In this document: piece after piece, positions 21,116 to 27,918 of the stretch
Numbering within the stretch: position 1 is the stretch's first letter
Layout of the letters: every line of letters begins with the position of its first letter
Virus genome (UHGV): UHGV-0137059
Direction: 5' to 3' (one strand)
Source: a virus
Length of the DNA: 27,918 nt
Program-made: the position numbers and the translations under genes
The notes under the pieces: model-generated
Seen by the model: the letters and a program-made list of their open reading frames with translations, nothing else
Database searches by the model: none
Told to the model about the DNA's origin: nothing

Positions 21116-21439
21116 ATGGATGCACAAACACGCCGCCGCGAACGTCGCGCAGAGAAACAGGCTCAATGGAAAGCAGCAAATCCCCTGTTGGTTGGGGTAA
21201 GCGCAAAACCAGTTAACCGCCCTATTCTCTCGCTGAATCGCAAACCGAAATCACGAGTAGAAAGCGCACTGAATCCGATAGACCTTACGGTGCTGGCTGA
21301 ATACCACGAACAGATTGAAAGCAACCTGCAACGTATTGAGCGCAAGAATCATCGAGTTTGGTATAGCAAGCCAAGTGAGTTCGGTATAACTTGTCAAGGA
21401 AGACAAAAGGTTAAAGGGAAATCCATTCCATTGGCATGA
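21116..21439 (+). CDS. N: Antitermination protein N (107 aa from ATG at 21116)
   Basis: MDAQTRRRERRAEKQAQWKAANPLLVGVSAKPVNRPILSLNRKPKSRVESALNPIDLTVLAEYH... matches recalled lambda N, including the arginine-rich motif. Confidence 0.95.
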   Translation: MDAQTRRRERRAEKQAQWKAANPLLVGVSAKPVNRPILSLNRKPKSRVESALNPIDLTVLAEYHEQIESNLQRIERKNHRVWYSKPSEFGITCQGRQKVKGKSIPLA

Positions 21440-21447
21440 GGTACGTA

Positions 21448-22317
21448 ATGAAGAAAATTGATTACAAGTCCATACCAAAACCAATAGACTCAGCATCAGA
21501 GCGAAAAAAACACAAAAAAGAGGCTGAAAAATTAGCAAATTATATCAGTTTTATTAGAAACAATGCTCACGGCGATGGCGACAGGAAGTTGCTTTCAGAT
21601 GCCCGGACCCAAGCGTTCAGCATACTTCGTAAGCAGATGCAATATCGTCTTCATCCAGGCTACATAATTGAAATTCGCCCGACTGAAAGACAATTGTTCT
21701 TATTAAACTCTGTCTTTGACTTTGTAAACGTAGTTGGAGATCTTATCGACAGGTCTGTAGATAAGGCTCCTGATACAAATAGTTTTCTTCTAACAAATAA
21801 AGAATACTTATATGGTAAATTTGGTATAAACGGATGGCAAAAATATGTACGATTCTTACGTGCATTCGTTGATGCGTATAAAAATTCCGACATGATTTAT
21901 ACATATTTGCCTGGTGGTAATAATTGTACGCTTTCGGCAGACAATAGAATATTCATACCTATACTTGGTCTTGGGCTGATTAATGCAGTAAATGAAAGAG
22001 ATGTTATAATTGTTAAGCAGTGGCGAAAGCATGAGGGATATAGATATCTGCCATGCTTTGATATATTAAAAATACAGAATAAATTCTATGTAAAAATTAA
22101 ATATAAAGAAGATGTTTTCTTCCTCAGAAAAAACAAAGATCTTTTACAAGAACTTTCTGGGACAATAGATGTCATCGTAGGTTCTAGGTTTATAAAAGAA
22201 CTGAAAGAAAGCAGGTCTTTCTCTCGTGTAGAGATAAGCGAGTCAGAGTTATGGGGTATATCAAATAATCCTGTAAACCACGCTCACCAACGAAATCCAA
22301 ACAAAAAGTGGTCATAA
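21448..22317 (+). CDS. Hypothetical protein (289 aa), strongly AT-rich cargo gene immediately downstream of N
   Basis: ATG at 21448 with GAGGT ribosome-binding site; base composition visibly much lower GC than flanking phage genes (long A/T runs, K/N/I/Y-rich product); no recognisable motif; followed directly by a terminator hairpin. Confidence 0.7.
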   Translation: MKKIDYKSIPKPIDSASERKKHKKEAEKLANYISFIRNNAHGDGDRKLLSDARTQAFSILRKQMQYRLHPGYIIEIRPTERQLFLLNSVFDFVNVVGDLIDRSVDKAPDTNSFLLTNKEYLYGKFGINGWQKYVRFLRAFVDAYKNSDMIYTYLPGGNNCTLSADNRIFIPILGLGLINAVNERDVIIVKQWRKHEGYRYLPCFDILKIQNKFYVKIKYKEDVFFLRKNKDLLQELSGTIDVIVGSRFIKELKESRSFSRVEISESELWGISNNPVNHAHQRNPNKKWS

Positions 22318-26613: not shown

Positions 26614-27189
26614 ATGACCACTATTACCAAAGAACGTATCGAATTATTCATTAAAAATCCGCTTGATAACGGGCTTACCCGTGGCGAACAAATGGAAGTG
26701 GCACGGATTGCACTGGCATCACTGGGAGCAGAACCTGTAAGCCAAACTTACAACTTGCCAGAATTAATCGAAGGCATGGAGGTTTCCATTGATGTAAGCA
26801 CTTGTGATGCGGATTTAGGTAATCGCTATTTCGGTACCGTCACCGAGGCGTTAGAACTTGATACTGCCAAGAATGGTTACATCCTCCTGGTTCAGGACGC
26901 AGAGCCAAACTTCGATATAAATGGCAACTCTCCGGTAACTCCGGATGGTTGGGTTATAGTGCCGAAGAAACTAACCGCTGAGAACGGCGCTAAGGGTGTG
27001 CTATCCGGTGAATTTTCAGAAACTACGTTTATAAGCTGCCCGGAATGCTTTGGTGATGATGATTGCGAAACTTGTGACGGCAGCGGGAGAATCGAAATCA
27101 AGGTTCCAGTCAGTTGGACAACTATCAAAACTATTTGGGCTAAAGGGTGTGAGTACTTTTCAATAGTAGCACCGCAGCAAGATGGGTGA
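26614..27189 (+). CDS. Hypothetical protein (191 aa) with C-terminal DnaJ-type CxxCxG...CxxCxGxG zinc-finger motif
   Basis: CPECFGDDDCETCDGSGRIE near C-terminus; ribosome-binding site AAGGTGA. Confidence 0.6.
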   Translation: MTTITKERIELFIKNPLDNGLTRGEQMEVARIALASLGAEPVSQTYNLPELIEGMEVSIDVSTCDADLGNRYFGTVTEALELDTAKNGYILLVQDAEPNFDINGNSPVTPDGWVIVPKKLTAENGAKGVLSGEFSETTFISCPECFGDDDCETCDGSGRIEIKVPVSWTTIKTIWAKGCEYFSIVAPQQDG

Positions 27190-27316
27190 TGAAAACAAGT
27201 GTTTATAACTTAAAAGCATTAAAAAATCGCTTATAGATCAAAAGAAATCTACGTCAAATATTACTATATTTCAATGTGTTATAATTACCCCGTACATAAA
27301 ATGGGGGGGACACAAA

Positions 27317-27559
27317 ATGTTCAAACGCTGCATCACCAAGTGTGGAAGCACACCTGACATCCAAGCTTTTATTAATGAAGATGGTAAGCTTGTTGTTGAG
27401 AGGAGTGGTCCTTTTATTAGCAAACAACTTATCATTACCTCTCCAGCGGAGATGGCCGGGGAATGGATAGTTTCTGAACCAGAGGAGTTGCACATCCCGC
27501 TTCCTTATGGCCCTCAGGGACTGATTTATAACCGTTATGTTCAGAAGGAGGCGGGTTGA
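27317..27559 (+). CDS. Small hypothetical protein (80 aa) behind an AT-rich promoter-like region
   Basis: ATG at 27317 preceded by GGGGGGG ribosome-binding site and AT-rich sequence with TATAAT-like hexamers (27200-27300). Confidence 0.5.
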   Translation: MFKRCITKCGSTPDIQAFINEDGKLVVERSGPFISKQLIITSPAEMAGEWIVSEPEELHIPLPYGPQGLIYNRYVQKEAG

Positions 27560-27838
27560 CAATGTCAGGCATAACATCGCCGAGAAATCGAAAGAAAAAC
27601 AGAACAAGGTAAACGTTGACCTTGCAGCATCAGGCATGGAGTACAGAGAGCGCCTTAACATACCTGTTATCACTGAGCAGGTATCATGAGAGCAACCTGA
27701 GCACTCACGCGAGTATTTCATGGAGCGCATCAGATACTATCGCGAGCAGTCGTTAAACATGCCCAAGGGAAGCAACCCATGGTATATCGATATGGATGAA
27801 CAGAACGCCAAGAAGTAAACGCAATTTGAACGAATGCG

Positions 27839-27895
27839 AACCCGCCGAGTGCGGGTTTTCTTTTATCTGAACTCGCTACGGCGAGTTTTGTTTTA
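27839..27895 (+). terminator. Tandem rho-independent terminators
   Basis: CCCGC-CGAGT-GCGGG followed by TTTTCTTTTAT (27841-27866), then ACTCGC-TACG-GCGAGT followed by TTTGTTTTA (27871-27895); next ATG with GGAG ribosome-binding site at 27908. Confidence 0.65.
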
Positions 27896-27918
27896 TGGAG
27901 ATGATAAATGCACTTCCG

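Follow-up and report, generated by a model that had tools for sequence, protein, structure and literature searches.

A probable moron-type cassette with a rare small gene and a decayed theta homologue in a P22/lambda-like Escherichia coli prophage

The last few hundred nucleotides (nt) of the virus genome UHGV-0137059 (27,918 nt, all of which were analysed and are called the window here) most probably represent a moron-type accessory cassette together with a decayed theta gene, carried by a P22/lambda-like Escherichia coli prophage; we put the probability of this reading at roughly three in four. The segment 27190-27918 contains an AT-rich, promoter-like region, the gene of a protein of 80 amino acids (aa) that we call p80, the remains of a gene related to the DNA polymerase III theta subunit HolE and to Hot of phage P1, two consecutive terminator-like hairpins and the start of a homologue of lambda orf55 (Table 1). 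The cassette is an ordinary example of a moron-type unit plus a pseudogene, with one mildly novel feature: a conserved promoter with a CTACGTC box that is tied to a very rare small gene family. A sequence-only reading of the same DNA had listed an AT-rich island with TATAAT-like hexamers, a G-rich ribosome-binding site in front of an 80-aa open reading frame (ORF), three shorter ORFs, one of them near an AAGGAGG, two consecutive intrinsic terminators and a new gene at 27908, and had proposed a moron or a decayed gene. All of these features were found again where they had been placed, and the analysis supports a moron-like cassette and a decayed gene side by side.

Table 1. Features of the cassette and its borders (window coordinates; SD, Shine-Dalgarno sequence; GC, G+C content)
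Feature	Position	Strand	Remarks
AT-rich intergenic region	27190..27316	+	GC 0.28; promoter core and ~25-nt leader
ATCTACGTCA box	27247..27256	+	CTACGTC at 27249-27255; presumed regulator-binding site
Extended -10 element TGTTATAAT	27277..27285	+	perfect match; TGnTAnnnT at same spacing in all diverged homologues
G7 run, SD of p80	27303..27309	+	7 nt before ATG 27317; length-polymorphic homopolymer
p80 gene	27317..27559	+	80 aa; WP_000476264.1; phrog_9613; predicted six-stranded beta-barrel
AAGGAGG, SD of former theta gene	27545..27551	+	10 nt before ATG 27562
Theta / P1 Hot pseudogene	27562..27818	+	original ATG 27562; original stop 27816-27818
16-codon ORF	27562-27612	+	out-of-frame stub from true theta ATG
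17-codon ORF	27636-27689	+	in-frame theta fragment
32-codon ORF	27720-27818	+	in-frame theta fragment
Terminator 1 (putative)	27838..27866	+	hairpin 27838-27858, GAACCCGC-CGAGT-GCGGGTT, and T-run; closes cassette
Terminator 2 (putative)	27869..27896	+	hairpin 27869-27888 and T-run; backbone; homologue of lambda predicted t4
First codons of lambda orf55 homologue	27908..27918	+	55 aa; xis and int beyond window

Promoter core, terminators and transcription

Between 27189 and 27288 the GC content falls to 0.22 compared with a window mean of 0.48 (sd 0.057), the second-lowest value for any 100-nt window of the 27.9 kb. The AT-rich intergenic region is kept in a relative whose p80 protein is only 70% identical. 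The extended -10 pattern TGNTATAAT occurs 3 times in the window where 0.6 occurrences are expected, and from the perfect copy upstream of p80 transcription is predicted to start at about 27292-27294. There is no usable -35 before this TGTTATAAT, which is why a two-hexamer scan gave no promoter on the plus strand. In its place the CTACGTC box, the sole exact copy in the window, lies at roughly -37 to -43, with 24 nt from the end of the box to the -10 hexamer.

The box is invariant in six diverged members of the p80 family, with proteins as low as 45% identical. Upstream of every family member we found a core of 38-39 nt, composed of (A)TCTACGTC(A), a spacer of 23-24 nt and TGnTAnnnT; it is located 27-41 nt before the ATG and is followed by a Shine-Dalgarno sequence (SD) at the position of the G-run in the window. 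Identity to the window amounts to 69-87% in the core, 60-74% in the coding sequence and 39-58% in the leader. In two members (L021 and L022) the box is doubled, giving direct repeats 21 nt apart (two helical turns). The core travels with the p80 gene and was found beside xis-int in Pectobacterium and in the nin region of Citrobacter-type and metagenomic contigs. The stronger conservation of this core relative to the coding sequence argues for a promoter that serves p80 autonomously and is probably regulated. In its position the presumed binding site corresponds to an operator or a class-II-type activator site, the promoter lacking a -35.

At its 3′ side the cassette is bordered by two predicted hairpins. 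Terminator 1 has 8 pairs (5 GC) followed by TCTTTTATCT (-12.4 kcal/mol, z -2.0) and terminator 2 has 8 pairs (4 GC) followed by TGTTTTATGG (-11.9 kcal/mol, z -4.7); with a hairpin and a U-tract each, both would be expected to act as Rho-independent terminators. A match of window 27756-27891, over both hairpins, to the Rfam family rsmX (24.2 bits, E 0.03; gathering score 56) was judged to be due to chance. In Pectobacterium (L022) the sequence AACCCGC-CCTGT-GCGGGTTTTTT, homologous to terminator 1, stands directly after the p80 homologue, and in another locus (L025) a terminator-like hairpin follows right after the gene. A homology break was seen in the terminator 1 hairpin of one IMG/VR copy (L030:3600-3760, UViG_643348546), where similarity to the window ends abruptly after GAGTGCG; we take the unrelated sequence past the break to be one end of a transposable element that has inserted here.

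The moron concept is said to go back to Juhala and Hendrix in 2000 and reportedly denotes a gene with its own promoter and terminator that sits between genes adjacent in relatives, and that is often expressed from the prophage. As to the promoter, the window offers a perfect extended -10 element and a CTACGTC box conserved in six diverged homologues, with no -35. The terminator is predicted in silico, in the window as terminator 1 and in Pectobacterium right after the p80 homologue; the latter layout defines the basic unit as promoter-p80-terminator. The insertion is evident from lambda, which carries ea8.5 in the same slot and whose homology to the window resumes at 27853. In the window and in a Citrobacter-type locus (L059) a theta gene lies between p80 and the end of the unit, and across the family, whose members are found beside xis-int or in the nin region, the downstream genes differ. 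Two other such neighbours were observed: a conserved 158-aa protein without family match in Pectobacterium, by xis-int (L022:5284-5760), and a 260-aa protein with an HNH_2 nuclease domain in a nin region (L025:2966-3748). A PADLOC search on the genes following p80 homologues gave only a weak HNH hit, and the genes in these two loci may be cargo with defence functions.

We propose that in the lysogen p80 would be transcribed from a sigma-70 extended -10 promoter without a -35, regulated via the CTACGTC box at about -40. Because the core occurs in different backbones, genera and positions, a backbone-specific regulator is unlikely, and because the box travels only with the p80 gene, we infer that p80 itself or a conserved host factor acts on it. 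The transcript would end at terminator 1, with terminator 2 as a back-up, so that orf55-xis-int would stay silent. Its last ~280 nt would be an untranslated tail formed by the dead theta copy, since translation from the AAGGAGG-linked ATG would stop after 16 codons owing to a 1-nt deletion. During lytic growth the N-modified polymerase from the early-left promoter pL would read through both terminators.

Alternatively, the cassette could have no promoter of its own and be transcribed only lytically within the N-antiterminated pL operon, the AT-rich island and its TATAAT being incidental to a mosaic junction. The entire exo-xis region indeed belongs to the pL operon with all genes in the same direction, and the standard -35/-10 scan found no promoter on the plus strand. 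However, the segment from the box to the -10 element is the best-conserved part of the locus and keeps its fixed spacing among proteins 45-70% identical, it moves with the gene into the nin region and other genera, and the layout is self-contained, as seen from the terminators in Pectobacterium and L025. We therefore regard transcription from pL alone as fairly unlikely. Of the 'autonomously transcribed moron' in the sequence-only reading, the moron-like unit holds, given a core that is conserved across 45-70% identical homologues at different prophage positions and a terminator after the gene in L022 and L025; transcription in the lysogen stays a prediction.

The box might also belong to a leftward promoter on the minus strand (-35 TTGACG or TTGAAA) that produces antisense RNA across the upstream Ea22-like gene. 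The scan does report TTGAAA-17-TAGATT on the minus strand at 27274-27246, and the reverse complement of the box, TTGACGTAG, agrees with the -35 consensus in 5 of 6 positions. In distant members, however, this hexamer becomes TGGACG, TCGACG or ATGACG and is not accompanied by a minus-strand -10 at a fixed distance, whereas TGnTAnnnT on the plus strand is kept in all of them. Minus-strand readings of the box were rejected for want of a conserved -10, and we consider a leftward promoter very unlikely compared with the plus-strand promoter of p80.

The p80 family

p80 matches phrog_9613, a family of unknown function, from end to end (E 3e-50). It yielded no matches in Pfam, NCBIfam or PADLOC, its profile gave 0 hits at E ≤ 10 against the PDB sequences, and nothing was found among the GTDB genome representatives scanned with the p80 alignment. 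The family is rare: a word-indexed search of 5.8 billion proteins returned 9 clusters, and 3 further homologues of 46-52% identity came from an exhaustive HMMER search over 1.84 billion representatives. Homologues with 46-70% identity come from Citrobacter, Pectobacterium and metagenomes, and members of the family also from E. coli; in a sister lineage of the window locus (L054-L057) p80 is 94-98% identical. An 864-aa protein (P0134, E 6e-4) consists of low-complexity repeats and was dismissed as a false positive.

Against the Citrobacter-type homologue the ratio of non-synonymous to synonymous substitution rates (dN/dS) is ~0.12. An AlphaFold2 model computed from a diverse alignment of 5 sequences shows a small beta-barrel (predicted local distance difference test, pLDDT, 83; predicted template modelling score, pTM, 0.74); an earlier prediction from 4 near-identical sequences was discarded (pLDDT 40). 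A search for structural neighbours with the model returned none that were informative.

The G-run in front of p80 varies in length among near-identical copies: G6 is the commonest form (25 copies), G7 occurs in 4, the window among them, and G5 in 1. At the same position we found GGGGAGA in the sister lineage and GAGGAG or GAGGA in distant homologues. With G6, an upstream ATG at 27274, inside the -10 element, is in frame with p80, and databases list a corresponding 94-aa form (P0001); in the Citrobacter-type homologue this upstream frame is closed by a stop. On the opposite strand, a 158-aa ORF (27254-27730) was judged spurious: it has no family match and would be broken by a 2-nt deletion in L056/L057.

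One could suspect a chance ORF in decaying prophage DNA, considering the lack of a Pfam or NCBIfam match, the extreme rarity of 9 clusters in 5.8 billion proteins and a premature stop in one p80 copy. Such an origin is highly improbable in view of ORFs of 74-80 aa in three genera with a conserved SD position, the conserved motifs AF.NED..LVVER, P.E.AG.W and YGPQGLIY, the low dN/dS and the confident fold prediction. As judged from these comparisons, p80 is a real gene under purifying selection.

The theta/Hot locus

A single TGA (27687-27689) separates the 17- and 32-codon ORFs, which are in the same reading frame. When this TGA is read as Arg, the translation scores 100.9 bits with PF06440 (DNA_pol3_theta; cut-off 34.6, E 3e-29) and covers nearly the whole profile (positions 2-67 of 70). 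It also matches phrog_1105, 'DNA polymerase III theta subunit' (E 2e-32), and is ~70% identical to P1 Hot over 71 residues. With the HolE equivalog model NF008207 it reaches 91.4 bits (E 2e-26) where the cut-off is 97 bits, which speaks for a Hot-like paralogue and not for a HolE equivalog. The Prokaryotic Genome Annotation Pipeline (PGAP) likewise calls a 'DNA polymerase III subunit theta, internal stop', drawn from the in-frame ATG 27537. Using tblastn we found apparently intact relatives of 68-70% identity in Klebsiella phages and prophages, in P1 (hot) and in HK639; intact 85-aa proteins with 72-79% identity start with MSGHNIAEKSKE. In these relatives GAGGGGG or GGGAGG stands at the same spacing before the ATG as AAGGAGG does in the window.

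Two lesions separate the window copy from P1 Hot and HolE. First, an alignment with four intact genes reveals a 1-nt deletion in codon 4, between 27570 and 27571, where GGCCAT or GGTCAT has become GGCAT (intact ATGTCAGGTCATAAC; Citrobacter-type ATGTCAGGCCATAGC; window ATGTCAGGC-ATAAC). It throws the SD-linked ATG out of frame and thus creates the 16-codon ORF, and no intact ORF of ~76-87 aa runs from this start. Second, the TGA replaces an Arg codon at position 43 (CGA>TGA; CGT or AGA in the relatives). Given the frameshift and the in-frame TGA, the locus is a theta pseudogene and not a functional member of the family. On this evidence the 16-, 17- and 32-codon ORFs are one dead theta/Hot homologue. 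Comparison with related prophages, which had been suggested as a check on whether the short ORFs are fragments of a longer gene, thus answers in the affirmative, and the supposed decayed gene acquires a name. A 93-aa 'intact' theta protein (P0010, L012) was set aside, as its DNA has the TGA, which a metagenome gene caller had read as Trp. In PHROGs the split gene is already catalogued as two separate families of unknown function, phrog_10131, which the 50-aa N-terminal fragment matches end to end, and phrog_29833, neither recognised as a piece of theta.

The order of decay was read from 35 window-type copies (31 IMG/VR loci, 3 RefSeq genomes and L010). All 35 carry the 1-nt deletion, and the main lineage, to which the window belongs, carries the TGA in its 32 copies, two of them (L041 and L006/cM2a) having TGA TAG. 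In the sister lineage L054-L057 the codon is still CGA, from which TGA derives directly, and further indels have been added: an additional 1-nt deletion in L055 and an additional 2-nt deletion in L056/L057. The frameshift therefore came first and was followed by lineage-specific damage. Stepwise damage of this kind is characteristic of a pseudogene, not of recoding.

A theta copy of at least 95% identity is present in about 91 of the 5426 complete E. coli genomes, and the next-nearest theta genes are at 60-80%. Since copies of the TGA allele are all at least 99% identical, their abundance reflects recent spread. A further copy of the doubly damaged allele, a recombinant that has taken its 3′ end from another theta allele, was found in a nin region (L011). 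There (L011:4960-5400, a contig of Logan SRR7613723) we observed a terminator-2-like sequence and a chimeric gene of 45 aa, P0009, made up of 21 codons from the start of orf55 joined in frame to 24 codons from the end of p80; the damaged theta allele follows this chimera. That the theta homologue still functions through recoding, with frameshifting near codon 4 and UGA read-through, might be argued from the ~90 E. coli genomes, the second context in L011 and a theta frame open from ATG 27537, but can practically be dismissed: the near-identity of the copies makes their count a sign of spread and not of conservation, the sister lineage has CGA at the stop site, different lineages show independent extra frameshifts or a second adjacent stop, ATG 27537 lies inside p80 without an SD, and the window differs from L054 by 6 non-synonymous and 0 synonymous changes.

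The window gene belongs to the small accessory genes of temperate phages, as do hot of P1 and the nin-region theta genes of prophages in Klebsiella, Citrobacter and E. coli. It lies in the exo-xis region, whereas the intact copies of lambdoid prophages that were compared lie in the nin region. Intact nin-region theta genes (L013:3960-4000, L016:1065-1105, L059:3245-3301) have their own TATAAT (CCCTATAAT or TGTATAAT) ~30 nt before the ATG, which suggests that they may be independently transcribed too; the place of this leader is taken in the window by the final 10 codons of p80. According to the passages of PMC7556043 that cite Chikova & Schaaper 2005, P1 Hot can replace theta in the DNA polymerase III core and dnaQ49 suppression was shown for Hot; for expression of hot in lysogens the same source cites Chikova & Schaaper 2007. 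The intact ancestor of the window gene would have acted like P1 Hot.

Prophage context, related systems and meaning

Window 27100-27918 is 100% identical to E. coli 1368KP (NZ_CM173843.1). The prophage is of a P22-like lambdoid type: structural, lysis, nin and replication genes are on the minus strand, and a cI-like repressor, N, recombination genes and Ea22-like genes on the plus strand. Extending the window to the right in 1368KP reveals the 55-aa orf55 homologue, an excisionase and an integrase gene and then the host gene ybhC. The suspected closeness to int and xis is thereby confirmed: the cassette lies in the exo-xis/ea region directly upstream of orf55-xis-int, on the int/xis side of the early-left (pL) operon. 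An IS66-family element, whose ISKpn24-like transposase ends at about window position 192, cuts the prophage at its left end, and the gene of the DNA-transfer (ejection) protein is reduced to a fragment at ~231-353; because of this truncation the prophage is defective in 1368KP.

On the left, 30 of 31 IMG/VR copies agree almost completely in the C-terminal end of the upstream Ea22-like gene. In the window this gene is a 191-aa ORF (26614-27189) whose body resembles Ea22/phrog_60 and whose tail is a DnaJ-type zinc finger (CPECFGDDDCETCDGSGR); PGAP in 1368KP calls only the first 138 nt of this ORF, as a partial pseudogene. Elsewhere the same C-terminal end is joined to N-terminal parts named Ea22-like, DnaJ, DUF550 or pyrophosphohydrolase, which indicates a mosaic junction inside the ORF.

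On the right, window 27853-27918 is 95.5% identical to lambda 29340-29275, the homology beginning at 27853, inside the T-run of terminator 1. The window resembles the exo-xis segment of lambda (ea8.5 - t3 - t4 - orf55 - t5 - xis) in that a variable accessory gene with its own hairpin is followed by a conserved terminator, orf55, xis and int. The shared terminator reads GAACTCGC-TACG-GCG(A/G)GTTTTGTTTTATGGAGA, with GAACTCGC-TACG-GCGGGTTTTGTTTTATGGAGA as the lambda version (t4); t3, t4 and t5 of lambda were predicted by Bloch et al. 2014 (PMC4195576, Table 4). In contrast to lambda, where the accessory slot holds ea8.5, the window has p80 and the theta pseudogene; terminator 1 takes the slot of the predicted t3 with a different hairpin sequence, and nothing like the AT-rich promoter island was noticed ahead of ea8.5 in the lambda sequence inspected. 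Conservation of terminator 2 extends over 126 phage records and 2255 of 5426 complete E. coli genomes. Behind it (…TTTTGTTTTATGGAGA) two unrelated genes alternate, either orf55 (ATGCACTTCCG…) or a 113-aa gene (ATGTCAGATTTGGCTATGAAGG…), as seen on comparing window 27869-27907 with L049, L052, L054-L057 and L037. Terminator 2 is therefore also a conserved linker or recombination junction.

With lambdoid morons the cassette shares the succession of promoter-like element, gene and terminator and a variable position among prophages with conserved flanks. It differs in its dead second gene and in the box upstream, which suggests regulation rather than constitutive expression. Apart from the cassette, we noted a 293-aa hypothetical gene (WP_001383906.1, window 21436-22317) just downstream of N; the AT content of the window peaks inside it (GC 0.19 at 22057-22156), it contains a second perfect TGTTATAAT at 22002 on the plus strand, and it may be another foreign accessory or exclusion gene.

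The analysis resolves several 'hypothetical' mini-ORFs, two PHROG families of unknown function and one 93-aa database protein into a single decaying Hot/theta gene, and the ordered lesions of this gene illustrate how prophage accessory genes erode. The lambda t4 prediction is documented as a widely conserved junction joining alternative modules. In the p80 family, a promoter core with an invariant CTACGTC is better conserved than the protein, which makes it a testable candidate for a regulated moron. It is conceivable, though on our estimate unlikely, that the CTACGTC-box promoter and p80 form a self-contained autoregulated unit that is mobile among prophages of Enterobacterales: p80 would bind its own box, single or in tandem with a 21-nt spacing, the unit would head different downstream genes (theta, the 158-aa protein, the HNH_2 nuclease), and it would give the lysogen a phenotype such as exclusion, anti-defence or control of neighbouring genes. 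If this were true, p80 would be the first representative of a new family of small regulators in phages.

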